DNA from: Tubulanus polymorphus
Lineage: Eukaryota; Animalia; Nemertea
DNA length: 64,000 nt
Direction of reading: 5' to 3'
NCBI RefSeq assembly: GCF_964204645.1
Contig: NC_134028.1
Location: 14,205,653-14,269,652, forward strand
In this document: positions 26,941-50,560 of the stretch, one piece after another
How the letters are laid out: every line of letters starts with the position of its first letter
Position numbering within the stretch: position 1 is the first letter of the stretch
Notes under the pieces: generated by a model
What the model saw: only the letters and a program-made list of their open reading frames with translations
What the model was told of the DNA's origin: nothing
The model's database searches: none
Made by a program: the position numbers and the translations under genes

Positions 26941-28203
26941 ATCAGAAAAATATGTACTTTATTTCATAGGTTGGTCTTTGATTGAAAACTAAAAATGGAT
27001 GATAGTTCTAAATTTGATGTTGATTCACATGACCAATCTAGTAAGTATGGCTCACTCGTCTTTTAGAATGAGAGACCTATTGCATTAATCTTTAATTCAA
27101 GTTGCTATACAACCTTTTTATACAGATATTTACCTTATCAATATAAACATGTATTTGCCATTAGCCATACAATTCAGTAAAACTTTTCCCGTCCAGATTT
27201 TGAAACATCATTTGACTCAATTTTTCCTCCTAGAAAATTGCTTTAGCTCGTTCCAATGTTCGCAGTAAAAGTGAATTGTAGCATGTATGATTCCCATCCA
27301 TCAATTTTGTCTTGTTTCGTATTTTTAGCGAAAATCTCGATGGTGGCCAGATGGTGGCCAGAAAAAGACATATTCTTGGGAAATATTTAAAGACGCATGG
27401 CAAACACACTTATTGTTCACTTTTTTCCTCTCCTTATTTTGAAATTGAAGTATTGTAATAAAATATTGATTTATTTTTGTTGATCAACGGAACTAGTTTC
27501 GTTGTTTTCTTTCTTAATTTACATTTGAATTGGATGGTCATCTTGCGTAGTAGTCAGTTTGTCATCGAAGCAATACAGTCTAACTTGTTGACGTCTCAGA
27601 TGCAGCGGGGCAGGGCGGTCATTATATTGTGGACTTATCCAAATTACACTTACACAGCCCAACGTGTTTCAGTGTGTAAACTCCGACGTACTCGGCATTA
27701 TAAGACAGCGAGGAATTGAGTTTTAGTCATCTGAGCCCTCGGCTTGATTCGACCAAAAAGACCTTAACTGACTTCACAGAATTTGATTATGAGTCAAGGA
27801 TTTTCTAAATTTCTGAATGTTTTCTCTGGTTTTAAGATCAATTCAAATTCAATCTTCAAAATATTTTATTGAAAGAAATTTTACTGAAGACAGATTTTGA
27901 TATATGATAAGGATATATCTAGGCAAATAATCACAGCAAAATCAACTGATGATCATCAAGGTGAAGTTTTCATTCATCTTCGGCTAATTTGTCTACCCCT
28001 CATGATTGAAGCATTTTGGTTACTCGCGCCAATTAGTCAGCCACAGTCGATTTTCATGCCATCTGACCTCTTTCTGTAATTAAGCAATCAAATGTAAGAA
28101 TTACTTAGGTAAGGAGCGAAATAATATATAGATATCTTAGGAGACTATTTGAAATCATGAGTTTGTTGTGAAAATCTATTACTACAGTCTCGTAGAGCAT
28201 AGA

Positions 28204-28597
28204 AGTAATAGGGAATATGTTGTTTCAGATCAAAGGTCGAACGGTCGAGTTCATTAAAAACAAAACATTAAAAGTAATTTAAAACTATAATATATTTTCA
28301 TAACCGTGTGCATTTTATATTAAAACTAAATATTTATTCTAAGATATCAATAATTTAAAAAGCATATTGTATTAAATCAATTGGTCGCTCCACTTCGCTA
28401 CCGCTCCGCTCCGCGACCAATTGATTTATTTACAATACACACATTCATATAATCAAATATATTCAAATAATAATAATATTCAACTGAAATTCACACGGTT
28501 ATGAAAATATATTATAGTTTTAAATTACTTTTAATATTTGTTATTAATGAACTCGACCATTCAACCTTTAACCTGAAACAACATATTCCCTATTACT
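28204..28597. repeat. Left terminal fold-back (394 bp) of element C
   Basis: AGTAATAGGGAATATGTTGTTTCAG...CTGAAACAACATATTCCCTATTACT. Confidence 0.95.
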
Positions 28598-28676
28598 CAT
28601 AAAATATTCATATATATGAATAAAATATAAATGAATAACTTCTAAAATCAATTTTAATAAAAAATTTGATATTAAA

Positions 28677-31600
28677 ATGGAAGCAAATAAGTACTACTGC
28701 CCAACATGTAAAATCAATATAGATAAATCCCAAAAAGCAAGACACAATAAAACTAAAACACATTTAGAGAATAAATTGAAACTAGAATATAAAGATGATA
28801 TATTAGAAACTAAATTAGATGAATTAAAGAATGAAAAAAGAATGAAGAAACATATAAATGTGATACATGATAAAAGATATTATAAAGAACATTTAAAATC
28901 TAAAAGTCATATTAGAAATATGAATAATGATATTTTAGGTGAAGATTATTTTGATAATGATAATGATAAGAAACATAAGACAATTAAAAGAATAAGAAAT
29001 AAATTAAACAATAAAAGACCATACATGGAAGATGTAAGAAATTATATTAATTCATTAGATAATAAAAAAGATATAGAGATAACCGAAGCATTCAAAAGTG
29101 ATATTGGCCCAGCAGCTATCGAGTTTAAATTTCATAAAGGAAAAACATTAGAAGAAAATAAAAAACATTTAGAAAATATGAAAGAAATAATAAAAATAAT
29201 AACTGATGTTGAATATCCTAAAATTAGTATATCTTCTAATGTAAAGTTTATAAAATCTGAAGATAAACCAATATATAATATAAATTCTCATTCACAACAT
29301 ATTATTTCAAAACAACATATAGATGATAAATTAGATAAATGTTATAATGAAGTAAAAACTAAAATAGAAGAGAAATATTTTGAAGGATCTGGTTTAATAT
29401 TTGATGAAATAATATTTATGACTTTACATGTTTATAACACAAAATTATAATAAGTTAACTAAATCAAAACCAATAGATGAAAATAATGTATCATATTATA
29501 AAGATGATAATATTAACGATCAAGTTATATCAAATTACCATTTAAAACTAATGCTGTTATAAATGTACAAAATTCTGATGATAAATGTGTTCTATGGTCA
29601 ATAATTAGTTGCTTACATCCTGCAACTTATAATATTTGTAGATTAACTCATTATAAACCATTTGAAAATAATTATAAGATAGATAAGTATCCAGTTAGAA
29701 TTAAAAATATCCCAAAAATAGAAAGAGATAATGATTTAAGAATAAATGTATTTGATTTAATCAAATAACCAAATACAAAAGGTAACAATATTAAACATTA
29801 TACATTAGAACCTTTATATCTATCAAAAGATTATGATTCAAACGATGTTATAGATATATTATATTATGAGAATCATTACATGTGGATTAAACAAATCGAT
29901 TTATTTTTTAAATCAGAAAATGATCACACTCGTAAAATATATGTAGAAAATGTTTTCATAGATTCAGTAATGAAAGTGCATTATTAAATCATAAACAATT
30001 ATGTGAAAATCATGATTATTGTAAATTAGTTTTACCAAATGAAAAGGATAAAATATTAGAATTCAAAAAATATGATTACCAAAATAAAGTACCATTTGTA
30101 ATATATGGAGATTTTGAATCATTAAATAAAGAATTAACTGATCAAAATAGAAAAGAAATATATTATAAAAGAAAGAAATTAAATTATAATGAAAATGATT
30201 TTTCAGATGAACCACCAAAAACAAATACAATTAAAAAGTTTCATCAATCAGCTGCAGCTTTCGGATTATATATCAAATCTGATTATCCAGAACTAATTGA
30301 AAGTGAATATTATCATTATAGAAATGAAAATGTTATCAATCATTTTTGTGACTTATTAATTGAATATGAAATAAGATTTAGTAAATTATTGAATACAAAT
30401 ATAGAAATTATAATGACAGAAGAAGATAAAGAAGCATTTGCGTTTGCAGATAAATGCTATTATTGTGAAAAGATATTTAATTATAAAGATAAAAAAGTAA
30501 GAGACCATGATCATTTGAATGGAAAGTTTAGAGGCGCTGCACATGAGAATTGTAACTTACAAGCTAAGAAAATTAATTTTGTACCAGTTATATTTCATAA
30601 TCTATCAGGATATGATGCATATTTATTCATCAAACAGTTATGTCATAAAATAGAAGAAATTAATAATGAAATAGAAAGATTAAATTCAAATAGATCAAAA
30701 GATAAAATACCAACTTATAAATTTAGAATGTTAGCTAAAACATCTGAGAATTATATATCATTCCAATTTGGGTGTTTAAGATTTATAGATTCATATAGAT
30801 TTTTAAATAGTTCATTAGATAACTTATCAAAATCATTAGTTGATGATGAATTAAAAATATTAAAACAACACTACCCAAATAATGATGATTTCCAATTAAT
30901 GAGATATAAAGGCGCAATTCCATATTCATTTTATAAATCACATAATGATTTTAACATAACTGAATTATTAAAAGAACAATTCTATGATGACTTAAAAAAT
31001 GAATATGTTAAAGATGAAGTATATAATAGAACATTGAATATTTGGAATCATTTCAAAATAGAAAATCATGGACAATTAGTAGATTTATATTTAAAATCAG
31101 ATGTATTATTATTAACCGATATATTCGAAAAGTTTAGAGATGTAAACCTAAAATATTTTAACATTGATCCTTGTCATTGTTATTCATCACCAGGTTTAAC
31201 ATGGGATTGTGGATTAAAATTTACAGATATAAAAATGGATTTGTTAACAAATATAGATCAATTACTATTATTTGAAAAATCTATAAGAGGAGGAGTTTCG
31301 GGTGTATTAGGTGATAGATATTTCAATGTAAATGATGAAGGATATAAGTTATTATATATAGGTGCAAATAATTTGTATGGTTGGGCAATGATGGAACCAC
31401 AACCTTATGGAGTATTTGAATTAACTGAAGTTTTACAGAATGAAAATAATGATAAATTTGATTGGAAGAAAAGAATTCTAGATATTGCAGATGATTCAGA
31501 TACTGGATACTTCTTTGTTGTAGATTTAGAATATCCTGAAGATAAAAAATTTAAATCTAGAAATCTAGCTTACTGTCCCGAACATAAAACTGTAACTCAT

Positions 31601-32693
31601 GAAGAATTATCAAATTACCAAAAAAGAATTAAACCCGAAAATCATATTCATACAGAAAAGTTAATGGTAACTCAAGAAGATAAATATAATTATGTAGTAC
31701 ATTATAGAATGTTAAAGTTTTATTTGAATCAAGGAATGATTATAAAAAAGTACATAGATATATTTCGTTCAGTCAATCTAAATGGTTAGAAAATATATAG
31801 ATTTTACCACCAAACAGAGAACTGAAGCTAAAACTGATTTCGAGAAAGATTTCTTCAAGTTAATGAATAATGCATTCTATGGTAAGACTTGTGAAAATAT
31901 TAGAAATAGAAATGATATTGAGTTAGTTAGTAATGGTAAAAGAATTAGACATTTACAATCATATCCTAAGTTCATTGGTAACAGAATATTTGATGAAAAT
32001 TTAGCTGCAGTTAAGATGAGAAGAACATCAATGAAATTTAATAAACCAATCTATGTTGGCGCTTCAGTTTTAGAATTATCAAAATTACTAATGTATGAAT
32101 TTTATTATAATAGAATTACAACCACTTTTTGGAGAAAAACATATAGAAATATTATATTTTGATACCGATTCTTACATATTAAAGATAAAAACTGATAACA
32201 TAACAGATGATTTAAAAACATTAAAACATCATTTTGATTTCAGTAACTATCCTAAAAATCATGAATTGTTTAGCAATGAAAATAAAAAAGTTCCAGGGAA
32301 GTTTAAGGATGAATTAGGTGGTGAAGAAATGATTGAATTCATTGGTATTAGATCTAAAATGTATTCATATAAAACTAAAGAACATGAAGCTAAAAAGTTA
32401 AAAGGAATAACCAAAAGTGTAGTAGAAAAGAATATTCATTTAAAAGATTACATCAATTGTATATTCAATGAAGAAGTTAGAAAACATAGGATGAGATGTT
32501 TAAGATCTGAAGATCATGAAATGTTTATTGAAGAAATTGAAAAGATAAGTCTAAACCCATTTGATGATAAAAGATATATTTTAGATGATGGAATTCATAC
32601 AGTTGCTTATGGTTGCAATTTAGATGAATACTTAAAATTTAAAAGAGAAGAAACAAGGAGAACGAGATAATGAAAAGAATTCTAACGTGTTAA
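28677..32693 (+). pseudogene. polB: Protein-primed-type family B DNA polymerase polyprotein (N-terminal zinc fingers, EndoVII-like insert), fragmented
   Basis: ExoI VIYGDFES, VIFHNLSGYD, RFIDSYRF, YLKSDVLLL; Pol motifs ANNLYGWAM, KLMNNAFYGK, YFDTDS; CYYC...VRDHDHLNGKFRGAAHENCN insert. Confidence 0.95.
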
Positions 32694-32722
32694 TCAAATT
32701 TTAATAAAAATATGTATTATAA

Positions 32723-33076
32723 ATGGAGAGTAAACAAACACACAGTGAGAACAACAAATTATTTCTAGATAGAATAAAAGATACTACAAATGTAAAATCT
32801 GTAGATTATAAATTCAAAAAGTTAACAGAATTAACAATTCATAAGAAATATCTAATTACAAATATTGATACAGTTACTAATAACTATGGAGATAAATTAG
32901 TTATACACTTAGAATATGAAGGATTAAAAGGAAATACAAATAAATTCAGAACATATTTACCAGATAGATTTCATAGATCATCAAGTGAAGACCTAGAAGA
33001 ATTATGTTCTGGAGATTTCTATTTCGTATACAAAGGTAAGAATGAAAAAGGGCACCATGAAATAGATTTCGAATAA
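32723..33076 (+). CDS. 117-aa conserved protein directly downstream of PolB (possibly OB-fold ssDNA-binding)
   Basis: KKLTEL..KYLI...NYGDKLVIHL...TYLPDRF pattern; the function is inferred only. Confidence 0.55.
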   Translation: MESKQTHSENNKLFLDRIKDTTNVKSVDYKFKKLTELTIHKKYLITNIDTVTNNYGDKLVIHLEYEGLKGNTNKFRTYLPDRFHRSSSEDLEELCSGDFYFVYKGKNEKGHHEIDFE

Positions 33077-33093
33077 GAAAATATGTAAAATAA

Positions 33094-33838
33094 ATGGCGG
33101 AATTAAAAGAATACAGAATATTTGCTTACAAATTATAAATCTCATAATTTACTAGTACAATTAGATAGAGAATTTAGGAATTGTGTAGATTCAAAATTAG
33201 TTAATATAAGTTTATGTAATTCTTTTTATAATGTATCGGATAAAACTATTGAACATAGAGTCTTTTTAATTCATGATAGAAATAAAAGTAAATGGTTTCA
33301 TCTTTATCTTAAACCAGGATTATATAATTTAGAAACATTAGCTCAAGAAATTAATAAAAGAGCTCGGTTGAAAATGGGTGCATCTGCTGGATTTGGTTTA
33401 AGACTTATTAAAAGTGATAGCTCTGATAAAATAAGAATAAAATTAGGCAATGAAGATCAACATCAATTTCTAGTTAAAAAACCTTTAGCTAACATTTTAG
33501 GAATAACCCCAGATGTAAGGATACGCAATGCTGATGCTACACCAAATATAATGCCTTTTACACACTTTTATATTTATTGCAATTTAATCGATCCTACAAA
33601 AACATTCGAAGCAACTAAAGATATAACTTGTAATTCTGGTTTACTAAACATTTTACCATTGAAGAATGTTAAAGAATTTGGAACGCAAATAAATTATAAT
33701 TTAACAGAATGTGATTTCAAACCATGCATTCCTAAATTTAATAATTTTAGATTAGAAATTAGAAATCACAATGGATACTTAATTGATTTAAATAATTTCC
33801 CTGTAATTTATGAATTAGTTATAAGATGTAGAGAGTAA
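33094..33838 (+). pseudogene. Minor capsid (penton-like single jelly-roll) protein, 5' frameshift
   Basis: NSFYNV, LKPGLYN, FYIYCNLID and LEIRNHNGYLIDLNNFPV motifs resemble Polinton minor capsid proteins. Confidence 0.75.
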
Positions 33839-33855
33839 TTTTTTTCACTATATAA

Positions 33856-34197
33856 ATGAATATAACTGTTGGGCCGAGTATATGTTTTGGGTTTGATTTT
33901 AAACATGGTAAAGAAATGAGAATTAAACTAAATGATGTAATTACTGATATAAAAAGTAAATCATTTAACAATGCATCAATGATTAATAAAGAAAATTATA
34001 ATATAGAAAAAGTAATTGATTTAATTAAATCACCTTTAGAATATTATGAATTAAATGAAGATGGAATTATTGATGATATTAAAAACATATTAACCAAAAT
34101 ATATGATAATCATAAAACTAGTAATGAAATAAATGTTGAATTAATCATAAATAAGTTAACTAAATATTTTGATGATAGTAATTTATTTGATAAATAA
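33856..34197 (+). CDS. 113-aa hypothetical protein
   Basis: Intact and conserved in D (51339-51680); TAAATG start. Confidence 0.7.
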   Translation: MNITVGPSICFGFDFKHGKEMRIKLNDVITDIKSKSFNNASMINKENYNIEKVIDLIKSPLEYYELNEDGIIDDIKNILTKIYDNHKTSNEINVELIINKLTKYFDDSNLFDK

Positions 34198-34419
34198 ATG
34201 AGTGATAATAAGTGGATAATAACTGGATTATATAATGGAGCATTACTATCAGTTGGAACTGTTGGTTATTCAATGGTATCAAAAAAAGTATTCCAAATGG
34301 GAAGTGTTAATGTTGATAGATTTGATATAAATGATATTTTAAAATTAACATTAGCAGTTACTTTATCTAATTTAACTATTGATTATTTGGAAAAACAAAA
34401 ATATATTCCTCCCATATAA
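34198..34419 (+). CDS. 73-aa hydrophobic protein
   Basis: Intact in both C and D; two hydrophobic/amphipathic segments. Confidence 0.75.
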   Translation: MSDNKWIITGLYNGALLSVGTVGYSMVSKKVFQMGSVNVDRFDINDILKLTLAVTLSNLTIDYLEKQKYIPPI

Positions 34420-34443
34420 ATGCATAATTTTTTTGCTAAATAA

Positions 34444-34838
34444 ATGGCTTCTGCAATTATAACTATTATAGGATCGGCAATTGTTAACGCTTTAGCATTT
34501 ACTGGTGGCGGTTATTTATATAAGCATATTGATAAAAATAGTTCATTAGGAGAACAAAGAAGACATAATTTAGCATTAGAGAAATATAATAAAGCAGCAG
34601 AAGAATATAGAGAAAAACGACAAAACTATATGGATTACATAAATAAAGAATTATATGATCAGAAGATTTCACATAGAGATTTTCAATCAGTCGATGATGC
34701 AATGAGTTTATATAACGCAGTAACAAATAAAGAAAAATTACATCTATACAAACCAATGAACAGAAGAAATATGAAATAATATGCATTTTAGGTGAAACTG
34801 TTATTGTTATATTTGTTGCTTATAAGTTTACTAATTAG
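34444..34838 (+). pseudogene. 140-aa protein with hydrophobic N- and C-termini, 3' deletion
   Basis: MASAIITIIGSAIVNALAFTGG; intact version at 51927-52349. Confidence 0.75.
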
Positions 34839-34858
34839 TAATTTTTTTTTCTAAATAA

Positions 34859-35293
34859 ATGGAAGATAAAGTTGATAATATTGATATTATTCCTCATGAT
34901 ATAAATAAAACTAAATTAAAAACATATTTAGAAAAACAAATATTAGAATTTGAAAGTGACTTAAAAGTTAAAAAGAAAAAATATTTAAATAGTAAAATTA
35001 TATATTATCTTACTATCAGTGGTTCGGTTACAATTTGTTCGGTAATAACATTTCTAGCAATATTCAGTCCATTAACACCTTTAGCTATATCAATTGGTGT
35101 ATTAGGATTAAGTTCAAGTGTTTTAACTGGTATAAGTTCAAAATTAAATATAAAAAGTAATAAAGAAAAAATTAAAACTAATATAAAAGAAATTAATAAA
35201 TTAAAGAATACACTAGATTATATAATAAGTTTAAATGGCCATATAACAGTTGAAGAACAAGATAAATTATTAAAAGAATTAGTTAATTATTAA
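34859..35293 (+). CDS. 144-aa two-TM protein
   Basis: Two adjacent hydrophobic helices flanked by coiled segments; conserved in D. Confidence 0.75.
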   Translation: MEDKVDNIDIIPHDINKTKLKTYLEKQILEFESDLKVKKKKYLNSKIIYYLTISGSVTICSVITFLAIFSPLTPLAISIGVLGLSSSVLTGISSKLNIKSNKEKIKTNIKEINKLKNTLDYIISLNGHITVEEQDKLLKELVNY

Positions 35294-35309
35294 TTTTTTA
35301 TTTATATAA

Positions 35310-36538
35310 ATGGTAGATAGTTTTCCAAAAGCTTTCCAATATAATAAATCAATTAAATATAATATTCCAGCAATAGATTTTAATAAAGATATTACATATA
35401 GAAATGAAGTTTTAGATTCATTAACTAATTTAGAAATTTTTGTTACTGAAACTAATAATTTTAATGCTAAGATGGAAAATATATTTCATGTATATTTAAT
35501 TAATTTTAGAAAATTGAAAGATGAAAAACAATGGATATTAAAATCTAATATGAAGTATTGGCTTTACCAGGATCAAGATATTTCAAAGAATTAGATAATA
35601 ATATTAATTTATCAAAGTTTTATAAAATTTGTAATGAATTTAATATAGATATAAGTAATTCTGATTTTAGAACAAAAATTGGAACAATAAGATCACTTCC
35701 TTGCCCTAAAAAGATTGCAGAATATTGTGCACTTCCCATACCATCTAATAGTTTTTATATCTATAATAATAAATTAGGTTATGGTAAAATAGAAACTAAG
35801 GATTTAGAAACATTAAATTTCAATAAATTACCGACATTTTATGATAATTTAAAACAAGAAAACAATAATGGTTGGGTTTATTTCATTTTAGAAAATAGTG
35901 AAGGTTTTACTAAATCAGGTATAGAAAGAATAAATCAATCTATTAGAACTTATTTGATATGTATTTTAGGATCGCAAGTTGAAACAAGATCCCCAATAAT
36001 TGGAAATTTAAATACATCATTTGATACACAGAAACAATTCAAAGTATTATTTAAAGATTCCATTCATAATGATAAAAATAGATCGATTCCAGAAAACATT
36101 ATAAGATATCAAAATTAATTAGATAAATCTCATGTAAGACTTAATTATTGTATAGGCCCTAATCTATTAATTATTTCTAATGATTTAGTATTAAAGATAG
36201 GAAATATAATTGGTTATAATAATCTAATTAAAACTGCAACAATAAATAATTCATTTGGATTGAATGATATAAATAAAAAGATTATTACTGCTCCAAAATT
36301 AATGGAAGGTGAAAAAAATAAAAAATACATTCAATCAACTGAAACTAAAACTAAGAATATTAAATTGGTTAATGATTCCAAAATAAAAGATTACAATACT
36401 ACAGAAAATATTAAAACTGATAATATTCAACATGATATAATTAAACTAAATGATGATAATAAATCCCATGAAAATACTAAATTAGCTTTAACTTGTATAG
36501 GAATTGTAATCGGAGGAATATTATATTTTAAATTTTAA
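35310..36538 (+). pseudogene. Conserved ~430-aa protein with C-terminal TM segment, internal deletion and stop
   Basis: Homologous to 52820-54160; lacks the CATTGCG segment because of a deletion at ~35561. Confidence 0.75.
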
Positions 36539-36554
36539 TTTTTTTATTATGTAA

Positions 36555-38261
36555 ATGGCAGAAGGTGGAGAAGGTTTTCCATTGGGTGGCATTGGAAATA
36601 ATAATGAAGGATTTATACCTGATAAACCACAACCTGATTTTGATGAAACAAGTTTTAATGATGGTAATGAATCAGCATATAATTCTAATTTAGGTGAAGA
36701 TGATTCTAGTGGGCCTATATTATATGATTATGATGAATTTAAAGATGATACTGAAACAAGTGAAAAATTAATAGATTATTTAAGAACACGCGATGAGATA
36801 ATAATTAAAACTAGACCAAAAAGAAAAGATTTAATTAATAGATTAGAAAGAACAGAAAACCCTGAATTGAAAAAAGAATTATTATACATAAAACATAGTG
36901 TAACAAATACAGTTATTGAAGAATTATTACCAAAAAATGTAACATATAACATTGAACCAGAAGATATTGCAATACAAATTGTAGAAGATGATCCATTCTT
37001 CATGAATAATTTAGAATTTAAAAATGATTCATGGTTTTATAAAGTTGAATTAAATAACGAAACTGTATCAATTCAATTATCTAAAATGGGACAAAAAGAT
37101 CTGTACCATCCTGAAATGCGTGCAGGATCTTCAATTGAACGTTCAAAAGGTGGTAGAGAATTTCTCAGAATTATATGGAATGCAATCGATAGAATAAATG
37201 AAGAACATATTCATAATATTGATATAAACAAATATTCACCATTTAAAAATCCAAATCCAAATCCTACTGATGTTGATCCAGAAACTGATGAAGATTTTGC
37301 AAATCGATTAGATAGATTAAGATCTTCAACGCCCGAAACATCGAGAAGAGACACTCAACCAATTGATAATGATTCAAGTCAATTACAATTAGTATTAGAA
37401 GAACAAATTGATAGATTAAGAGATTCAGAAGAAGAGATGAATAGTACTGGAATAAATCGAATACAATCTTTACTAAAAAAAGGACTTCTTAAATTAACTG
37501 ATGATGAATTGGAAGCATTTCCTGAACAATCACGTAGAGAAATTAAAGGTATACAAGAATCAGCTGATGTAAATGCTAATATTAATATGAGATTTTCTAA
37601 AATAGCCATGTTAGAAAAAGAATTAGCTATTGCAAATGAAAAATTAGAACAATTAGAATTAAATAGAGATCTTAATGTAATTTATGAAGCTTATTATGAA
37701 AGCGGAAAGTTAGCTTTAGAAAAAGAAATAGATGATTTAAAATATAATATAGAATTACAGAAAGAAGAAAGAGATACATTATTAAAATCATATGATCTTA
37801 ATCATATTAAAAAATTTAAAGTTATTTTTAAAGATTTGTTGATAAAACCAAATTCTGAAATATCATTGAAAGATAGAATAAAATTATAATTTAAGTTAGA
37901 AGGAATAACAATTCTTTCAATTCTAACAGCTGTAACTATGTTATTTACAACAATAGGTTTAGCAATATCAAATGCTTTAAAATCTACTCCTACTCCCAAT
38001 AAACCGGATAAACCCCCGAATGATAATAATTCTATACAAGATAAAGTTAAGGATGGTTTAAGAAAATTAGCAAAATATTTATGGGAACTATCTAAAAAAT
38101 CTGCTGCAGCTTTACCAGGAATTATTGCATCAATTGTTGGTTTTATATTGAAATCTGCAGGAAACATTATTAACTTTGCTGCTGAACATATTATTTTATT
38201 TTTAATTACAGTTGTAAGTGCTATTATTTTTGGGTTAGTAAACAAGATCAAAAATAAATAA
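36555..38261 (+). pseudogene. MAEGG-type coiled-coil/membrane protein (~568 aa, one internal stop)
   Basis: The 444-aa and 107-aa ORFs are in the same frame, separated by TAA; C-terminal hydrophobic helices. Confidence 0.8.
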
Positions 38262-38281
38262 TTAATTTTTTTGTTAAATAA

Positions 38282-39524
38282 ATGAGTGGGAGTTATATCA
38301 ATCCTTCTAAGAATCATAGAATATCTAATGCTATTAAAGCAGAAAGATCACATCATATAATTACTCATAACCCTTCTAACATTAATCCTGATGAAACTTT
38401 ATATGTTATAATTCCTCGATTAACACAAAATACTTTTTATGTTCCAAATAGTATTTATTTATCAGCCGATATAAAAGTAACTGGTCATGATAATAATTAT
38501 GTTGTTGATTATGTTGGAAGATATTCGATTAAAAAATTAACTATAAAGATTGGTCCAGAAACCGTTTTCTCATTAGATGATTATAATTTATTTATGCATT
38601 ATAAAGATTTATGGTTAACTAAAGAAAATAGAAATAATATGATATTTCAAGGAATCCAATCAGAAAACCATAATAAATTAAGATCAGGAGCTAATGACGC
38701 AATAGTAACTCGTACCGCAGATAATTTGATTAAAAAGATTCATGGAAGCAAATATAAAATTCCATTAGACTTTGAATTGATAAATAATAATGCGCCTTTA
38801 TATAAATACGCAATTCAAGAAGACGTTATATTCGAAATAACATTTGCTCCTGTAAATGAAATTGTATTATCTAGCGTAAGATATGAGTTATAATTTATCG
38901 AATATATGTTTAGAATATGACACAGTAACTGATTAAAATATTGCAAGTATAATTCAAACTAAATACAATCAAGGATTTTCATTATTATATGATTATATTG
39001 ATAAATTTAAAACCGTAACTATTAATGCAAATGATGAAATTATTAATGAGAATATTAACTTCCCAAGAAGATCTATTAAAGGTATATTAATATTTTTTAC
39101 CATTGCAACATATTCTAATGGTGCAATACAGGTTGATAAGTATTATAATCCTGAAATAACAAAAGTAGAAATAACTATCGAAGGAATAGCAAATAAAATA
39201 TTTTGTCAAGGAATGAGAATGATAGATCAATGGCCAGAAATTAGAAAACATTTTATGAATGAAAAAGTAAAATCATCTGAAAATTGTAATATTAATCAAA
39301 TTGATTATTATACCGGTAATAAATATGCATTATGGTTAGATTTTAGAACAACGGAGGATAATTCATTACATGGTTCTGGAAAAAAATTACAAAACACTAA
39401 AGATGGAATACAATTATTCATGACAAAGAAAAAAGGAAGCTTAAATTTCAAAATGCACGTTTATATTATATCTGATGCGCAATTAAATATTGTAAATTCT
39501 CAATTAAATAGTGTTATGTATTAA
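38282..39524 (+). pseudogene. Putative double jelly-roll major capsid protein, disrupted
   Basis: Highly conserved across B, C and D; ~410 aa; beta-rich pattern (NPSNINPDETLYVRIP, IPLDF, LEYDTV, INENINFPRRSIKGILIFF, YALWLDFR). Confidence 0.72.
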
Positions 39525-39556
39525 AATTTTAACTTTAATAAAAAATCTTATATTAA

Positions 39557-40681
39557 ATGGAAGGTGGAATATATGAAATACAAACTCCAAGTGAAATGAT
39601 AACAGATATATATTATATATTACCTTATGATGAATACATTAAGTATTTTGGAGATTACCTTAATCAATTCAAATATAGAATAAGTAAAATAAAAGATAAT
39701 ATTGAAACTAAAATAGAAGATAAGAATGATATTGAATATAAAATAGAAGATGATATTGAAACTAAAATAGAAGATAGTAATAATATTGAAACTAAAATAG
39801 AAGATGTAACAGCATCTACATCTTATAATATACCCTCTACATATGATATTGAATCAAAAAAAGATTATTATAATCCAAAATATTGTGATGTATGTAAGAA
39901 ATATATATCATATAAAAATTGGGCATCACATAAGAAATCAAAGAAACATATAGAAAAAGAAAAGAATAATAATGATAATAATATATCAGTTAGTAATATA
40001 AAAGATAATGTTAACCCAATTGAAACTAATGATACCATAGATAATATAACAGATAATGTTTACCCAATTGAAACTAATGATAATGATATAACAGATAATG
40101 AAATAATTGATGATTCTAAAAAACATTGTAACATTTGTAATTTAGATATTTCTAAAAGTAATTTTTCTAAAAATAAAAAATCTAAGGGGCACATAGAAAA
40201 TGAAAAAGAATTAATATGTGATTATTGTAATAAAGAAATTGAACCTGTTGATAAAATTACTTATTATAAATCAAAATTACATCTAATTATTGTTTATAAA
40301 AAAGTGGGTATGTTACCATTGTTAGATGAACCAAAGAAATATATCAAATATTTTAATCCTGAAACTAAACAATATCATATATTCTTTAAGTTGTCATTTG
40401 ATAAATTATTAGCTTATGCAGAAGATAATCCTGACCAAATATATAAATTAGCGTATAATGGATACCTAGATTTATTTAATTTAATAAATGATTTTGAATT
40501 TGATTTTGATGGTGATAATTCTAATGATTACTTTGAAAAATTAAGAATAAAAGCTGGATTAAGTGATGATGAACGTAGAATGAAGGATGAAATAGAATTA
40601 ATAAATATGCCAAAGACTTCTGATGAATTTGATATAAACAAAGATGATTTTATAAATGTATTAGAAACAAAATTAGAATAA
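39557..40681 (+). CDS. Multi-zinc-finger protein with IETKIED repeats
   Basis: Three CxxC...H..S..H-type motifs (some degenerate); homolog of 19655-20749. Confidence 0.8.
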   Translation: MEGGIYEIQTPSEMITDIYYILPYDEYIKYFGDYLNQFKYRISKIKDNIETKIEDKNDIEYKIEDDIETKIEDSNNIETKIEDVTASTSYNIPSTYDIESKKDYYNPKYCDVCKKYISYKNWASHKKSKKHIEKEKNNNDNNISVSNIKDNVNPIETNDTIDNITDNVYPIETNDNDITDNEIIDDSKKHCNICNLDISKSNFSKNKKSKGHIENEKELICDYCNKEIEPVDKITYYKSKLHLIIVYKKVGMLPLLDEPKKYIKYFNPETKQYHIFFKLSFDKLLAYAEDNPDQIYKLAYNGYLDLFNLINDFEFDFDGDNSNDYFEKLRIKAGLSDDERRMKDEIELINMPKTSDEFDINKDDFINVLETKLE

Positions 40682-40689
40682 TTATTATA

Positions 40690-41020
40690 AAACTATTTAT
40701 ATATCTATAAAAATATTTATATATCTATGCACTAGACGTATGAGTATGAAAGTAAGAACCCAAGAATCCTTGCCAAGAAATATAAATTATAAACATAAAT
40801 TATAAACATAAATTATAAACATAAATTATAAACATAAATTATAAACATAGTTTTAATATATAATTTATTCATCATTATATATTTCATTTAATAATTCATA
40901 TTTCTATGGACTAGACGTACGTAAGAATCCAAGATTCTTGCCAAGAAAGTAAAAAGGTAAGAATCTTACTTTCTTACTCGTACGTCTAGTACATAGAAAT
41001 ATAAATTAGTTTCTATAATA
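40690..41020. repeat. Structured convergent intergenic region (candidate bidirectional terminator)
   Basis: ATTTCTATGGACTAGACGTACG...CGTACGTCTAGTACATAGAAAT inverted repeat and (TATAAACATAAAT)n array between convergent gene blocks. Confidence 0.75.
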
Positions 41021-41037
41021 TTCCAAATTATAAATAG

Positions 41038-41649
41038 TTATTTTATAAATTTATATTCATATGGAAATTGTAGTCTCAGTAATAATTTTGAACCTTTATT
41101 ATTCTTTAATTTATTCATATATTCATCATGTAATTCAGTATGTATAATTTGATTTTCTTCCAATGATTGTTGCATAGATTTTTTATCTTTGTTATAAATT
41201 AAAACTAGAAATCTTATATTCTCCCTAAAGTCTTTAACAATTGAATTATATTTTTGATTTATAACCCATGTTGTTATCCCAAAATGTCTCCCAGAGAAAG
41301 CTAGATAACATAACTCACTTTCTCTCACTTTTGAATCATGTAGATTAGCACAATCATCTACAATGAATAATGTATTTGATCCTTTATAAGTATCAATTGC
41401 TATTTTAATACAATTATCTAAATTTTCCTTTACTGTTTTAGGATCTAATATAATAAACTTTTTCATCTCAACTATATCTCTATTATATGTTTTATTCATT
41501 TCATAAGTAGGACCGAATAATATTATATTATCAAAATGATTCTTATAAATAGTTTCTAACAAATCTAATATGAAATGTGTTTTACCACAATTGGTTACTC
41601 CAGTAACTAACATATTATGCGGTTCAAATATAAATAAATCTTTACTCAT
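41038..41649 (-). CDS. A32/FtsK-like genome packaging ATPase (intact)
   Basis: GVTNCGKT Walker A, LFIVDD Walker B, SGRH arginine motif, NQKY sensor. Confidence 0.93.
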   Translation of the reverse strand: MSKDLFIFEPHNMLVTGVTNCGKTHFILDLLETIYKNHFDNIILFGPTYEMNKTYNRDIVEMKKFIILDPKTVKENLDNCIKIAIDTYKGSNTLFIVDDCANLHDSKVRESELCYLAFSGRHFGITTWVINQKYNSIVKDFRENIRFLVLIYNKDKKSMQQSLEENQIIHTELHDEYMNKLKNNKGSKLLLRLQFPYEYKFIK

Positions 41650-42751
41650 TTATTCTTTTAATTTTACTAGATAAAATCCATTCATTAAATTTATCATCGT
41701 ATCCTTTATATTTCACCAAAGAATACTTTTTTCCTTTAAGAGTTTTCGTTTTCAATACTTTTTCTATTTTGTATTCTATTTCATCTGGATTTGGTACAAG
41801 TGATAATTCTTGTTCATAGAAATAACCTAATATTTCTTCATCTTTTATATCTTCTAATTTATAAACAAAAGGTTTAGTTAATATTATCTATTTAATCTTG
41901 AATATTTCTTCAGTAAAATTTGGGGTATAACCTTTATAAAAAGTTTTTCTATATTTAGATATTCTTACGTGTTGTCCTATTTTAAATTTAGGTTCACCGA
42001 AATCATGTGTAACAAACGCTCCATATAAATTATTCCAAACTATTTCCGAATTATCTTCTTTTCTAGCTTGTATAGGTTTCATATTTATAGAACTATGTTT
42101 AGAATTATTATAACCTTTCACTAAATCATCTAATACATCGATATATTTGTATGTTTCATTAGCAGTAAAATATTTCCACATTCTAGTTTTCAATGTTTTA
42201 TTAAATCTTTCTATAATACATGCTTTTTTATCCGAGTGTGTTGAAAAATAATCTACATCGTTATCAGATAATAGTTTTTTGAAATGTTTGTTATAAAATT
42301 CCTTACCTTCATCAAATTGTATCTTATCTGGAATAGCTTCTTTAAATATATTCTTAAAAGCATTTGTCACTTCTATGCCAGTTTTATTTTTGATTGGAAT
42401 TGACCATGCGTATCTACTGAATATGTCTATAACATTTAATATCCAGAAATATCCTTTGTTGTATTCCTCTAAGTTCTTCATGTCAATTAAATCTGCTTGC
42501 CATTGTTGATCGATATATGAAACCATAACTTTTCTTGTTTTATCCATTTTCTTGTGGATTTGATATGTTGGTTGATTTTGTAACCATGATTTCAATTCAC
42601 TATATTTTATATCACCGTGTGGGTGCCATACGGCACCATTACCATTTTCCTTATCAGATTTAATTTTACCCCATAATTCTGTAACGTTAGAATATGATAC
42701 TTCACTTTCTGGGTTATAATATAACTCTCTTAAATATTCTTCTTTTTTCAT
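41642..42751 (-). pseudogene. rve integrase with chromodomain, internal stop at 41888
   Basis: Intact DDE core (WQADL, QFDEGKEF, IERFNKT); the chromodomain lies after the stop. Confidence 0.93.
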
Positions 42752-42757
42752 CTTATT

Positions 42758-43156
42758 TTAATCCATTAATAATAATTTAGATTTAGTTTCAATGACTTTA
42801 TGATTTGACTTATTTTCTGGTATGATAGGTTTACTGTCTGTATACGGATAACTAAGTTTCCGATTGTTATTGGAATCATCTTTATCATCAGATTTGAATT
42901 TTGATTTATATATTACACCGGATAATATAATAATTGTGATTAACCCAATTGTAATATATAAGTAATTATTTCTTCCACTATTAGAAGAATTAGATGGATT
43001 ACTATTTGAATCAATATCAGATAAAGTCGGTGATTCATTTATATCAGTTAATTTCTTTTTCTTAGCTTTTTTTAATTCTGAAGATCTTTTACCCAATTCT
43101 CTTGTCCATTTAATTTGTTTTTCAGATCTAGCCTTTTTCTTAACATCATCACTCAT
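42758..43156 (-). CDS. 132-aa basic single-TM protein
   Basis: Lys-rich N-terminus and YLYITIGLITIIILSGVIY TM segment; conserved in B and D. Confidence 0.75.
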   Translation of the reverse strand: MSDDVKKKARSEKQIKWTRELGKRSSELKKAKKKKLTDINESPTLSDIDSNSNPSNSSNSGRNNYLYITIGLITIIILSGVIYKSKFKSDDKDDSNNNRKLSYPYTDSKPIIPENKSNHKVIETKSKLLLMD

Positions 43157-43159
43157 TTA

Positions 43160-43757
43160 TTTTAGTTAATTTTTGTTCTGATTCATTTTCTGTTTAGACG
43201 TTTGGTTGTAGTACAGCGTCATCTGTTTCGTTCTTACCTGATTTATATTCCATAGGCTTGATGTTCGAAAATGTTATGACGCCAGTAGAAATTAATGTCA
43301 AAACCGATCCTAATTGAAATGAAGCATATCCGACCCATTTTTGTAATTCAGTCATAACTAACTAGTCATTTTTCAAATCACTATATAATTTATTTTCATC
43401 ATCAATTGGTATTAACTGGTTACATAACTTAGAGTAACATTTTATAATACCATCACTTATAGAGTCGTTTATTCTAGCTAATCTAGCTTCTTCATAAATC
43501 TAAAAATATTTTATTACTTTATCGGGTTTCATAGCATCTAATTCTTGAAAAGTTATTATTTTCCCGATAAACTGATTACATTTACCACTAGCAATTAATA
43601 ATTCTAGATGGTGCTTACAATATAAATAGTATTCATAATCAATATTACAATTAATATTATTTTCAATTTTGATTGGAATATCCTTATTATCACTAATACC
43701 TAAATCATCTAATGTTTTTTCAATATCAATACTATTCTTACTCGATTTCTTTGACAT
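43160..43757 (-). pseudogene. Conserved ~200-aa hypothetical protein, internal stop
   Basis: Homologous to 6818-7425 and 60307-60887. Confidence 0.7.
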
Positions 43758-44016
43758 TTATATTAGAGAAATTAAATAAGAAAAATATTATAAGTATTAT
43801 AAAATGATACCAGTATCTTTTTAGATTAATACTAGCTTAGTTAAAGGTAAATAATTTTAGTATTAGTTATTGTTTTTTTAGTATTTTTTATTTGTGATAT
43901 AAAGTATTCTTTTTTGAAAAGAAAATATTAAAAAAACAATAACTAATACTGGCTAGTTGAAGATATGTAATTTTTAATACTTTTTATTTAAAATCTATTA
44001 TTCTTTAACCACTCAT

Positions 44017-44667
44017 TTAAGACTCAACGTATTGTTCATTATTTGGATCATTGTTCCATTGATCAATAAATTTCTTTGCCTTTGTTAACTGTTCTGAATA
44101 TAACTGTAAATCTAGTTTATTAGATTTGATTTGATTTTCTTTCTTTTCTAGAGGTCTTAAATTTTTCCAACCCCAAATAAGTTTTTTATTGTATTCATCA
44201 TTCATGTTAAATTTAGATAACACATGATCAATATGAAAGTATTCACCATAATTATCTACATTCATTTTATCGTCGAATTGATATATTATCCACGATTTTA
44301 AGAATTCATCTGTACAACCCAACAAATTAGATAGTGTTTCTGAATGTGTTTCTTTGTTGAATAATTGTGTTAATCTAGATCTTAAACATTGTTTCAATCT
44401 AAAATTAAGATCTGTTTGATATCTTTCTCTCATATATTCTGCCATATATTAATTATAATGTTCTATATTATCTTCTCAGTATTGTTTGGTATATAGTTTA
44501 AAACAAGTTTTACAGCAATATTGAAAACCATATTTGCTAATCTTACGCTTACTAAATTCTGTTAAAGCTAATTTATCTAATTCACATTTACAACACTTCT
44601 TGTAATATATATTTATAACACCAGTGTTATTTGTAATATTGATAGTTTGTGGTTGTTCTGGTTCCAT
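44017..44667 (-). pseudogene. HNH-like nuclease, internal stop
   Basis: Two in-frame fragments; HIDHVL and NLRPLEKKEN motifs. Confidence 0.75.
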
Positions 44668-44996
44668 TTATTATACGTATTTTTTACTAAATTGGTTAAT
44701 ATTTTAGAATCCTCTTCCATTTCTTCGACCAACGTCATCCTTTTTAATTCCTCGCTGCTTTTGATAAGTTGTTTCGATTCCCTGATATCAAATTCCTCAA
44801 CGTATTGTTCATTATTTGGATCATTATTCCATAATTCAATAAATTTCTTTGCCTTTGTTAACTGTTCTGAATATAACTGTAAATATTCTAGTTTCAATTT
44901 ATTCTCTAAATGTGTTTTAGTTTTATTGTGTCTTGCTTTTTGGGATTTATCTATATTGATTTTACATGTTGGGCAGTAGTACTTATTTGCTTCCAT
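44613..44996 (-). other. Chimeric ORF: PolB N-terminal zinc finger fused to an HNH C-terminal fragment
   Basis: The first 38 aa are identical to the 28677 ORF, followed by LQLYSEQLTKAKKFI... from the HNH tail. Confidence 0.8.
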
Positions 44997-45075
44997 TTTA
45001 ATATCAAATTTTTTATTAAAATTGATTTTAGAAGTTTTTCATTTATATTTTATTCATATATATGAATATTTTAAG

Positions 45076-45459
45076 AGTAATAGGGAATATGTTGTTTCAG
45101 GTTAAAGGTTGAATGGTCGAGTTCATTAATAACAAATATTAAAAGTAATTTAAAACTATAATATATTTTCATAACCGTGTGTATTTCAGTTGAATATTAT
45201 TTTCATTTGAATATATTTGATTATATGAATGTGTGTATTGTAAATAAATCAATTGGTCGCGGAGCGGAGCGGTAGCGAAGTGGTGATTTAATACAATATG
45301 CTTTTTAAATTATTGATATCTTAGAATAAATATTTAGTTTTAATATAAAATGCACACGGTAATGAAAATATATTATAGTTTTAAATTACTTTTAATGTTT
45401 TGTTTTTAATGAACTCGGCCGTTCGACCTTTGATCTGAAACAACATATTCCCTATTACT
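45076..45459. repeat. Right terminal fold-back (384 bp) of element C
   Basis: Reverse complement of 28204-28597 with a ~10-nt deletion beside the loop. Confidence 0.95.
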
Positions 45460-45630: not shown

Positions 45631-46040
45631 AGTAATAGGGGTAATGGGCTTTCAGGCCAAAGGTCGAAGGGTCGAGCTCATTAAAAAACAAAACATTAAA
45701 AGTAACTTAAAACTATAATATATTTTCATAACCGTGTGTATTTTATATTATAACTAAATATTCATTCTAAGATATCAATAATTTAAATTTAAAAAGCATA
45801 TTGTATTAAATCAATTGGTCGCTCCACTTCGCTACCGCTCCGCTCCGCGACCAATTGATTTATTTACAATACACAAATTCATATAATCAAATATATTTTA
45901 ATAATAATTATTATTCTATTATTCAACTGAAATACACACGGTTATGAAAATATATTATAGTTTTAAATTACTTTTAAAATTTGTTTTTAATGAACTCGAC
46001 CATTCAACCTTTAACCTGAAAGCCCATTACCCCTATTACT
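45631..46040. repeat. Left terminal fold-back (410 bp) of element D
   Basis: AGTAATAGGGGTAATGGGCTTTCAG...CTGAAAGCCCATTACCCCTATTACT. Confidence 0.95.
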
Positions 46041-46246
46041 CTTAAAATATTCATGTAAATGAATAACATTTAAATTGAAAGATTATTCAATATAAAAGTA
46101 TATATTTACAACATTATTTCAATATTCATATTTGTGTGAGTTAGATTTTTAAACATTAAAAGTGTTAGTAAAGTGTGATTGAAATAATACATGATATAAA
46201 TCATTGAACTTCTAAAATCAATTTTAATAAAAAATTTAGTATTAAA

Positions 46247-49200
46247 ATGGAAGCAAATAAGTACTACTGTCCAAAATGTAATATCAATATAGATAAATCC
46301 CAAAAAGCAAGACACAATAAAACTAAAACACATTTAGAGAATAAATTGAAACTAGAATATAAAGATGATATATTAGAAACTAAATTAGATGAATTAAAGA
46401 ATGAAAAAGAAATATACAAATGTGATACATGTAATCAATCATTCAGTGATAAAAGATATTATAATGAACATTTAAAATCTAAAAGTCATATTAGAAATAA
46501 GAATAATGATATTTTAGGTGAAGATTATTTTGATAAAGATAATGATAAGAAACAGAAGACAATTAAAAGCATAAACAATAAATTAAACAATAAAAGACCA
46601 TACATGGAAGATGTAAGAAATTATATTAATTCATTAGATAATAAAAAAGATATAGAGATAACCGAAGCATTTAAAAGTGATATTGGCCCAGCAGCTATCG
46701 AGTTTAAATTTCATAAAGGAAAAACATTAGGAGAAAATAAAAAACATTTAGAAAATATGAAAGAAATAATAAAAATAATTACTGATGTTGAATATCCTAA
46801 AATTAGTATATCAGTTAAAGTTAAATTCATAAAATCTGAAGATAAACCAATATATATTATAAATTCTCATTCACAACATATTATATATAAACAACATATA
46901 GATGATAAATTAAGATAAATGTTATAATGAAGTAAAAACTAAAATAGAAGAGAAATATTTTGAAGGATCTGGTTTAATATTTGATGAAATAATATTTATG
47001 ACTTTACATGTTTATAACACAAAATATAATAAGTTTACTAAATCAAAACCAATTGATGAAAATAATGTATCATATTATAAAGAACCAGATATTGAAGCAT
47101 CGAGTTATATTAAACTACCATTTAAAACTAATTCTGTAATAAATGTACAAAATGAAGATGATAAATGTTTTCTATGGACAATTATAAGTTGTTTACACCC
47201 AGTTGTAGATTATAATAAACATACTTATAGATTAACAAATTATAAACAATTTGAAAATAATTATAAGATAGATAAGTATCCTGTTATAATTAAAAACATC
47301 CCAAAAATAGAAAGAGATAATTATATAAAGATAAATGTATTTGATTTAATCAAATTACCAAATACAAAAGGTAACAATATTAAACATTATACATTAGAAC
47401 CTTTATATCTATCAAAAGATTATGATTCAAACGATGTTATAGATATACTATATTATGAGAATCATTATATGTTGATTAAACAAATCGATTTATTTTTTAA
47501 ATCAGAAAGTGATCACCATAAAATATATCTTTGTAGAAAATGTTTACATAGATTCAGTAATGAAAGTACATTATTAAATCATAAACAATTATGTGAAAAT
47601 CATGATTATTGTAAATTAGTTTTACCAAATGAAAAGGATAAAATATTAGAATTCAAAAAATATGATTACAAAAATAAAGTACCATTTGTAATATATGGAG
47701 ATTTTGAATCATTAAATAAAGATCTAACTGATCAAGATAGAAAAGAAATATATTATAAAAGAAAGAAATTAAATTCTAATGAAAATGATTTTTCAGATGA
47801 ACCACCAAAAACAAATACTATTAAAAAGATTCATCAATCAGCCGCAGCTTTCGGGTTATATATAAAATCTGATTATCCAGAACTAATTGAAAGTGAATAT
47901 TATCATTATAGAAATGAAAATGTTATCAATCATTTTTGTGACTTATTTATTGAATATGAAATAAGATTTAGTAAATTATTGAATACAAATATAGAAATTA
48001 TAATGACAGAAGAAGATAAAGAAGCATTTGCGTTTGCAGATAAATGTTATTATTGTGAAAAGATATTTAATTATAAAGATAAAAAAGTAAGAGACCATGA
48101 TCATTTGAATGGAAAGTTTAGAGGCGCTGCACATGAGGATTGTAACTTACAAGCTAAGAAAATTAACTTTGTACCAGTTATATTTCATAATCTATCAGGA
48201 TATGATGCACATTTATTCATCAAACAGTTATGTCATAAAATAGAAGAAATCAATAATGAAATAGAAAGATTAAATTCAAATAGATCAAAAGATAAAATAC
48301 CAACTTATAAATTTAGAATGTTAGCTAAAACATCTGAGAATTATATATCATTCCAATTTGGTTGCCTAAGATTTATAGATTCGTATAGATTTTTAAATAG
48401 TTCATTAGATAACTTATCAAAATCATTAGTTGATGATGAATTAAAGATATTAAAACAAAACTACCCAAATAATGATGATTTTAAATTAATGAGATATAAA
48501 GGAGCAATTCCATATTCTTTCTATAAAAATCATAATGATTTTAACATAACTGAATTATTGAAAGAACAATTCTATGATGAATTAAAAAATGAATATGTTA
48601 AAGATGAAGTCTATAATAGAACATTGAATATTTGGAATCATTTCAAAATAGAAAATCATGGACAATTAGTAGATTTATATCTAAAATCAGATGTATTATT
48701 ATTAACCGATATATTCGAAAGGTAAAAACCTAAAATATTTTAACATTGATCCTTGTCATTGTTATTCATCACCAGGTTTAACATGGGATTGTGGATTAAA
48801 ATTTACAGATATAAAAATAGATTTGTTAACAAATATAGATCAATTACTATTATTTGAAAAATCTATAAGAGGAGGAGTTTCAGGTGTATTAGGTGATAGA
48901 TATTTCAATGTAAATGATAATCCTGGATTTAAATTATTATATAAAGATGCAAATAATTTGTATGGTTGGGCAATGATGGAACCACAACCTTATGGAGTAT
49001 TTGAATTAACTGAAGTTTTACAGAATGAAAATAATGATAAATTTGATTGGAGGAAAGAATTCTAGATATTGCGGATGATTCAGATACTGGTTACTTCTTT
49101 GTTGTAGATTTAGAATATCCTGAACATATTAAATTTAAATCTAGAAATCTAGCATACTGCCCCGAACATAAAACTGTAACACATGAAGAATTATCAAATG

Positions 49201-50161
49201 ACCAAAAAAGAATTAAACCTGAAAATCATATTCATACAGAAAAGTTAATGGTAACTCAAGAAGATAAATATAATTATGTAGTACATTATAGAATGTTGAA
49301 GTGTTTTTCGAGAAAGATTTCTTCAAGTTAATGAACAATGCATTCTATGGTAAGACTTGTGAAAATATTAGAAATAGAAATGATATTGAGTTAGTTAGTA
49401 ATGGTAAAAGAATTAGACATTTACAATCATATCCTAAGTTCATTGGTAACAGAATATTTGATGAAAATTTAGCTGCAGTTAAGATGAGACGAACATCAAT
49501 GAAATTTAATAAACCAATCTATGTTGGCCCTTCAGTTTTAGAATTATCAAAATTACTAATGTATGAATTCTATTATAATGTATTACAACCACTTTTTGGA
49601 GAAAAACATATAGAAATATTATATTTTGATACTGACAGTTACATATTAAAGATAAAAACTGATAACATAACTGATGATTTAAAAACATTAAAACATCATT
49701 TTGATTTTAGTAACTATCCTTAAGATCATGAATTGTTTAGCAATGACAATAAAAAAGTTCCCGGTAAATTCAAGGATGAATTAGGCGGTGAAGAAATGAT
49801 TGAATTCATCGGTATTAGATCTAAAATTTATTCATATAAAACTAAAGAACATGAAGCTAAAAAGTTAAAAGGAATAACCAAAAGTGTAGTAGAAAAGAAT
49901 ATTCATTTCAAAGATTACATCAATTGTATATTCAATGAAGAAGTTAGAAAACATAAGATGAGATGTTTAAGATCTGAAGATCATGGAATGTTTATTGAAG
50001 AAATTGAAAAGATAAGTCTAAACCCATTTGATGATAAAAGATATATTTTAGATGATGGAATTCATACAGTTGCTTATGGTTGTAATTTAGATGAATACTT
50101 AAAATTTAAAAGAGAAGAAACAAAAGAGAACGAGATAATGAAAAGAATTCTAACGTGTTAA
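46247..50161 (+). pseudogene. polB: Protein-primed-type PolB polyprotein, fragmented
   Basis: INVQNEDDKCFLW (OTU-like protease-type motif), C2H2 finger, VIYGDFES, EndoVII-like insert, DANNLYGWAM, KLMNNAFYGK, YFDTDS; frameshifts and a deletion near 49300. Confidence 0.95.
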
Positions 50162-50190
50162 TCAAATTTTAATAAAAATATGTATTATAA

Positions 50191-50543
50191 ATGGAGAGTA
50201 AACAACACACAGTGAGAACAACAAATTATTTCTAGATAGAATTAAAGATATAACAAATGTAAAATCTGTAGATTATAAATTCAAAAAGTTAACAGAATTA
50301 ACAATTCATAAGAAATATCTAATTACAAATATTGATACAGTTTCTAATAACTATGGAGATAAATTAGTTATACACTTAGAATATGAAGGATTAAAAGGAA
50401 ATACATATAAATTCAGAACATATTTACCGGATAGATTTCATAGATTATCAAGTGAAGACCTAGAAGAATTATGTTCTGGAGATTTCTATTTCGTATGCAA
50501 AGGTAAGAATGAAAAAGGGCACCATGAAATAGATTTCGAATAA
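50191..50543 (+). pseudogene. 117-aa protein homolog, frameshifted
   Basis: Near-identical to 32723-33076 with a 1-nt deletion. Confidence 0.7.
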
Positions 50544-50560
50544 GAAAATATGTAAAATAA

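Follow-up and report, generated by a model that had tools for sequence, protein, structure and literature searches.

TAAATG Gene Starts with an Upstream T at −12 in a Polinton-like Provirus and Its Capsid Clade Suggest a Pox-Type Promoter

We analyzed a stretch of 64,000 nucleotides from the nemertean Tubulanus polymorphus (NCBI RefSeq assembly GCF_964204645.1, contig NC_134028.1, forward-strand positions 14,205,653 to 14,269,652; hereafter the window, with coordinates counted from its first letter) that holds an integrated Polinton-like provirus, element C. A previous sequence-only reading of the window held that 14 of the 16 genes of this element start within TAAATG, the initiator word of poxvirus late genes, and that their expression may depend on a pox-like transcription machinery.

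RESULTS

Element C and the Starts of Its Genes

Element C occupies positions 28204–45459 (17,256 bp, 76% AT), is bounded by terminal inverted repeats (TIRs), and is flanked by a 6-bp target duplication, CATAGA. In each TIR, the outermost ∼390 nt (28204–28597 and 45076–45459) make up an imperfect hairpin with a terminal 10-mer at both ends (DNA fold z −21); no flip/flop isomers were seen among the TIR ends compared by eye. A protein-primed DNA polymerase of the B family (pPolB), an rve integrase with a chromodomain, and an A32 ATPase were identified in the window with Pfam. The list of 16 genes given by the sequence-only reading holds (Table 1): homologues in intact relatives were found with tblastn for 14 of them, including the early-broken genes at 33094 (14 aa) and 44667 (63 aa), and PolB is identified by Pfam. 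Because many of its genes are broken, element C is a decaying provirus.

All 14 TAAATG starts are where they had been placed, and the two remaining genes, PolB (28677) and the integrase (42751), do begin with TAAAATG and TAAGATG, respectively. For comparison, TAA precedes 40 of the 705 other ATGs in the element (5.7%; binomial p = 4e-16 for 14/16) and 40 of the 497 other ATGs that come first after a stop (8.0%; binomial p = 5e-14), the counts being taken over 28203–45451, that is, a few bases off the true element ends. Same-strand intergenic gaps are mostly 16–32 nt, in accordance with the ∼20 nt described earlier, and, as had also been said, few starts overlap a stop codon: the start at 34198 is the one of the 14 that abuts a stop. 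Outside element C, the 72-aa gene at 11169 of a non-autonomous satellite likewise starts in TAAATG, with both a T-run and a T at −12 upstream.

Table 1. Coordinates of Element C, Its Genes, and Related Copies in the Window
Feature	Position	Strand	Start and upstream core	Remarks
Left TIR	28204–28790	+		97% identity to right TIR
PolB, protein-primed DNA polymerase B	28677–32670	+	TAAAATG, A-run, T at −12	In pieces; Pfam DNA_pol_B_2
117-aa gene	32723–33076	+	TAAATG, A-run	No assigned function; homologue in L003
Likely minor capsid (penton) gene	33094–33838	+	TAAATG, A-run	Broken near start (14-aa frame); 43% to 254-aa gene of L003
113-aa gene	33856–34197	+	TAAATG, T-run	No assigned function
73-aa hydrophobic gene	34198–34419	+	TAAATG	Conserved; sole stop-start junction
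∼139-aa gene	34444–34835	+	TAAATG, T-run	Conserved; broken
144-aa gene	34859–35293	+	TAAATG, T-run	Hydrophobic stretch
∼440-aa gene	35310–36538	+	TAAATG, T-run	Conserved; in pieces; no assigned function
Gene with acidic N terminus and hydrophobic C terminus	36555–38261	+	TAAATG, T-run	Broken
Major capsid protein (double jelly roll)	38282–39524	+	TAAATG, T-run	Broken
374-aa zinc-finger-like gene	39557–40681	+	TAAATG, A-run	Variable; lone TAAATG start without T at −12
A32-like packaging ATPase	41038–41649	−	TAAATG, A-run within integrase coding end	Pfam Pox_A32 4e-11
rve integrase with chromodomain	41642–42751	−	TAAGATG, no T at −12	Stop-interrupted
132-aa basic gene	42758–43156	−	TAAATG, A-run	
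∼215-aa gene	43200–43757	−	TAAATG, T-rich	Conserved; broken
Cys-rich/HNH-like gene	44017–44667	−	TAAATG, A-run	Broken (63-aa frame; 222–226 aa in other copies)
Right TIR	44883–45459	−		Holds duplicate of PolB 5′ end (44996)
Sister copy D	45631–63890			∼89–94% identical; duplication TACGTT; homologous starts retain TAAATG
Non-autonomous satellite	9421–13514			Ends as in element C; 6-bp duplication TATATG

TAAATG Starts Follow a Capsid Clade

Alignment of the capsid yielded 18 metagenomic loci, the 16 close ones among them (L001–L016) having capsids 52–84% identical and GC contents of 20–44%. With one gene-calling rule (first ATG after a stop) for close, more distant, and distant Polinton-like virus (PLV) loci, the 16 close loci had TAAATG at 59 of the 71 called starts, as compared with 91 of 2316 non-start ATGs, and the word was retained at 6/8 starts in the two close loci at GC 40–44%. 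In the controls, at GC 32–39%, the counts were 0/16 starts for the four loci whose capsids are more distant and 3/40 starts for the three distant PLV loci. Five of the 12 non-TAAATG calls in the relatives retain TAAAT or TAAAAT at most 4 nt from the ATG, and most of the others are fragments or doubtful; all were counted. A quick tree of the capsid with 53 rows was built with no named reference rows and leaving out L002, L012, and L014–L016 (near-duplicate or partial). In it, a single branch (SH-aLRT 98) has the 12 TAAATG rows all on one side; related rows carry the trait in common and do not count as independent events, but it is retained over at least five sub-branches. TAAATG starts are a feature of the whole capsid clade and extend beyond the window. 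The words found at the ATG differ in other clades: TAAAATG (L022, L023), TATATG-like (L017, L018), and TATA-rich (L019–L021).

Alternatively, hosts whose 5′ leaders are very short might use TAAATG and its AT-rich upstream core as a polymerase II initiator, or these sequences might be a context for translation or trans-splicing in the host. The family does multiply in nuclear DNA with target duplications, and the AT-rich words found at the ATGs of related-capsid loci (TAAAATG at 5/16 starts; TATATG-like in L017 and L018) could track hosts. However, the motif tracks the capsid clade and persists over GC contents of 20–44%, none of the 14 ATGs has an AG acceptor before it, and the T at −3 runs against animal start contexts, in which it is disfavored. 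Nor do sense coding strands avoid AATAAA (132 observed versus 130 expected), which is weak evidence against nuclear processing. We consider a host initiator or context quite unlikely.

A T at −12 and Two Kinds of Core Precede the Starts

With upstream positions numbered from the A of the ATG, the 56 distinct upstream sequences of the relatives have a T at −12 in 51 cases, a T at −13 in 43, and an A at −18 in 43. The T at −12 recurs in the window at 13 of the 14 starts versus 14/40 non-start TAAATG words (p = 1.7e-4) and in far relatives at 24/27 starts versus 8/35 non-starts (p = 1.6e-7), and a matrix trained on the 27 far starts discriminates window starts from non-starts (p = 7e-6). Neither T at −13 (8/14 versus 15/40, p = 0.17) nor A at −18 (10/14 versus 21/40), the latter enriched in the relatives, is enriched in the window.

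A run of T upstream of the start had been proposed as a frequent mark of structural genes. A T-run does precede 8 of the 14 starts, whereas an A-run takes its place before the remaining 6, among them that of the likely penton gene; the association of the T-run with structural genes is a tendency only, and it is the T at −12, rather than the T-run, that the window starts have in common. The core upstream of the clade starts is poor in G and C, and its T-run and A-run forms echo, by analogy, late and intermediate poxvirus promoters. A search for the vaccinia early core in the sequences upstream of window and clade starts gave no match. The early terminator TTTTTNT occurs in sense coding strands 9 times versus 24 expected and 8 versus 21 expected, and in the sister loci also 4 versus 12, overlapping counts inflating the p values. 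Downstream, G at +4 is found at 43/59 starts versus 21/90 non-starts, so the translation context appears to be under selection while −3 stays T.

These positions, together with the layout of the genes, bear on whether compact AT-rich packing could by itself give rise to the motif, through a stop codon beside the start or through the upstream gene's AATAAA overlapping the ATG. The AT content of the element would favor this, as would the calling rule (taking the first ATG after a stop favors TAA) and the presence of AATAAA within 8/14 window starts and 23/56 relatives' starts. Against it, TAAATG is found on both strands in seven of nine head-to-head gene pairs, where no gene ends (six of these pairs 19–30 nt apart), and 1/59 starts in the relatives abuts a stop, like 1/14 in the window, which together exclude an origin in stop-start overlap or in the poly(A) signal. 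With the calling rule unchanged, the counts in the control loci are low, and packing leaves the fixed T at −12 unexplained. On the background counts, the controls, the T at −12, and the head-to-head pairs, we take stop-start overlap, poly(A) signal, and AT richness as sources of TAAATG to be refuted, and packing as a whole to be a highly improbable origin of the motif.

Sister Copies, Satellite, and Proteins of the Family

Besides copy D, three further Polinton copies (86–94% identity) are partly present in the window. The hallmarks of Maverick-Polintons, TIRs and a 6-bp duplication, are present in element C, copy D, and the satellite. The satellite is palindromic and sits within the ATPase gene of another copy; its promoters at 9803 and 13132 are similar to that of the 33094 gene, and its 11169 promoter is almost identical to that of the deoxynucleoside kinase gene of L003. 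Such kinase genes were found in two relatives (L003:10340–10981 and L007:2895–3377; Pfam dNK). A decayed retroelement of the long interspersed nuclear element type, with endonuclease and reverse transcriptase, lies between Polinton copies at 14336–19000. In contigs of runs X1–X3, positions 32714 and 44684 are joined on opposite strands, as if some copies had inverted between two similar A-run promoters; run X4 gave 0 contigs matching the element or its flank.

The capsid of a relative, P0001, which shares 77% identity with the N-terminal piece of the copy D capsid, was modeled as a double jelly roll (DJR; pLDDT 88), and the model matches the iridovirus and PBCV-1 capsids in Foldseek at E about 1e-16; a related capsid has been named from a clam. 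Capsid genes of the family also occur in records labeled as bacterial genomes (the P0058 cluster, L022, and L023), probably through eukaryotic contamination. The fold of the 442-aa homologue of the 35310 gene in L003 has a pLDDT of 46 and gave no structural match. Proteins L009:2348, L011:267, and L012:238 carry YPxL-like and PSAP motifs near the N terminus, which we take to be ESCRT late domains and which could indicate budding. An adenain-type cysteine protease, a trait of Maverick-Polinton group 1, gave no Pfam match in the open reading frames (ORFs) of the window or the relatives, and a motif scan was negative in the window and clade and positive in the control L021. Scans of viral contigs with the ATPase, the clade capsid, and the sister capsid gave no match, nor did a scan of genome contigs with the clade capsid.

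DISCUSSION

A Putative Post-replicative Promoter for a Poxvirus-like Helper

The poxvirus literature provides the closest parallel for this layout. Direct reading of TAAA (−1 to +3) by the vaccinia polymerase is accompanied by an AT-rich core that lies roughly one turn upstream (PMC12917281), and slippage of the enzyme on the three T's gives rise to a poly(A) leader (PMC6211774); vaccinia late promoters combine TAAATG with a conserved upstream T, while intermediate ones are A-rich (PMC11980589; PMC5294985), and in salmon gill poxvirus TAAATG is found at many conserved genes (PMC4542343). The post-replicative hallmark, TAAAT(G) over the start codon, is present in element C and its relatives, which resemble the vaccinia intermediate and late promoters (PMC11980589, PMC11423596, PMC12917281, PMC5294985) in having a conserved upstream T, an AT-rich core about one helical turn upstream, and T-rich and A-rich variants. 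Unlike in vaccinia, the T peaks at −12, and the putative promoter stands before nearly all genes, including PolB-type and accessory ones, of a 17-kb element with no detected polymerase.

The pox-type promoter proposed by the sequence-only reading gains support from the occurrence of TAAATG throughout a clade at GC 20–44%, the fixed T at −12, the head-to-head pairs, and the absence of any detected RNA polymerase subunit. We think it probable that, in this Polinton-like clade, TAAATG with a T at −12 acts as a post-replicative promoter on which a co-infecting poxvirus-like helper's RNA polymerase works. Transcription by the helper polymerase would begin within the AAA of TAAAT, and slippage would then add a non-templated poly(A) leader; because this leader would take its place, the T at −3 would never be in the mRNA. 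The element would replicate itself with its own pPolB, then package itself, and would re-enter the host genome via its integrase, as Mavirus and the EMALEs do. The virophage trait of having no RNA polymerase of one's own is found in the element as well: at the sensitivity of Pfam, RNA polymerase families gave 0 matches among 45 ORFs of the window and 40 of the relatives. The copies in the window are decayed, and helper dependence may therefore describe their source virus rather than their present state.

Several points weigh against a poxvirus-like helper. The T peak of the relatives lies at −12 (T-N8), whereas the published vaccinia late pattern is T-N9-TAAATG, i.e., a T at −13 (PMC11423596, Table 1), so that a helper, should there be one, probably differs from vaccinia in its details. 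The A-run of the 6/14 starts that have one ends ∼9 nt before TAAA, nearer than the A-rich core of vaccinia intermediate promoters (12–14 nt before TAAA), and neither kind of run is fixed among orthologues, the capsid gene having an A-run in L007, L011, and L012. The integrase is a recurrent exception to the exact TAAATG, in the window and in two of the three relatives with a clear start (L004:1642 and L005:4981; L001 has the full motif), and may be under separate or weaker control. Many of the 56 upstream sequences come from kin and are hence non-independent. The generic A32 ATPase aside, neither the element nor its relatives gave a gene of poxvirus affinity, and a search with the L003 deoxynucleoside kinase gave no named viral neighbor. 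Moreover, because yeast virus-like elements use TAAAN with a polymerase of their own (PMC6211774), the TAAA word is no proof of a poxvirus. Dependence on a pox-like helper is what we infer from the sequence layout, and no helper sequence was found.

The yeast case leads to the main alternative, namely that a pox-derived transcription system, belonging to the family itself or to another cytoplasmic element, reads the promoters, or that an element factor redirects host polymerase II to them, with no large helper needed. The yeast pGKL elements combine just such an initiator and poly(A) leaders with their own polymerase (PMC6211774), and about ten genes of element C are without known function. 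These genes, however, are mostly 70–250 aa long, and the two longer ones (about 440–560 aa) are not of the size of a large polymerase subunit; the search of the window and relatives' ORFs gave no RNA polymerase family, and the 16 consecutive called genes of L003 are without a polymerase, though L003 lacks the PolB end. We judge a helper-free system of this kind to be rather unlikely.

Beyond the probable reading of the motif as a promoter for a poxvirus-like helper, we put forward a wider and more tentative proposal: that a widespread Polinton-like clade, amplified in animal genomes, may consist of endogenous virophages of an undiscovered poxvirus-like lineage, with T(−12)/TAAATG as the helper's fingerprint and with the neighboring TAAAATG and TATATG capsid clades perhaps tuned to the polymerases of other large viruses. 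No virion of animal Polintons has been seen, according to 10.64898/2026.06.19.733378. With a putative pox-type promoter in front of almost all genes in one clade, helper dependence in their expression and spread becomes testable, and the T(−12)/TAAATG layout offers a sequence fingerprint with which to find the missing poxvirus-like virus. If true, this would carry the provirophage model beyond protists into a genome that is probably an animal's, where it might be of antiviral benefit to the host.

Comparison with Known Systems

A search of the literature, with subscription papers and bioRxiv supplements outside its scope, gave no report of TAAATG promoters in Polintons. The available text of PMC11296320, on entomopoxvirus PLVs, has 0 occurrences of "promoter" and no promoter analysis, and that of two 2026 preprints on egoviruses and PLV classification, among them 10.64898/2026.06.19.733378, likewise has 0 occurrences. 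What appears to be new is a clade-wide, promoter-like TAAATG/T(−12) layout with a pox-type signature, a putative variant of the provirophage theme whose mechanism we infer from sequence.

The yeast linear pGKL elements are not known to carry a capsid or an integrase. They resemble element C in having pPolB, TIRs, and a TAAAN initiator with poly(A) leaders and differ from it in encoding their own polymerase and capping enzyme and in having an upstream conserved sequence (PMC6211774). Among elements with fuller likeness in gene content, Maverick-Polintons (Polintoviricetes) and animal-derived PLVs share with element C TIRs, a 6-bp duplication, pPolB, the rve integrase, the A32 ATPase, a DJR capsid, and a length of ∼17 kb (10.64898/2026.06.19.733378), a likeness drawn from gene content rather than from placement against group profiles; unlike Maverick-Polintons, the window and clade loci have no detected adenain protease motif. 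PLVs also occur with entomopoxviruses and have been proposed to be poxvirus hyperparasites; compared with element C by description only, these carry a protease and an L2-mu-like gene, most of them a lipase, and no rve integrase is reported in the available text (PMC11296320).

Virophages are known to share promoters with their helper viruses (PMC8547959; Gezel-14T, 10.1101/2022.07.28.501842; Halocafeteria preprint). Mavirus and the EMALEs of Cafeteria (PMC8547959), Sputnik, and Gezel-14T are like element C in being small integrating viruses with a DJR capsid, pPolB, and an rve integrase, and with a large-virus promoter motif on their genes. Unlike in these systems, the element's capsid has virophage capsids among its matches only as one DJR fold of many, a protease motif was not found, the host is probably an animal, and the motif is the pox-type TAAATG rather than TCTA or AAAATTGA.

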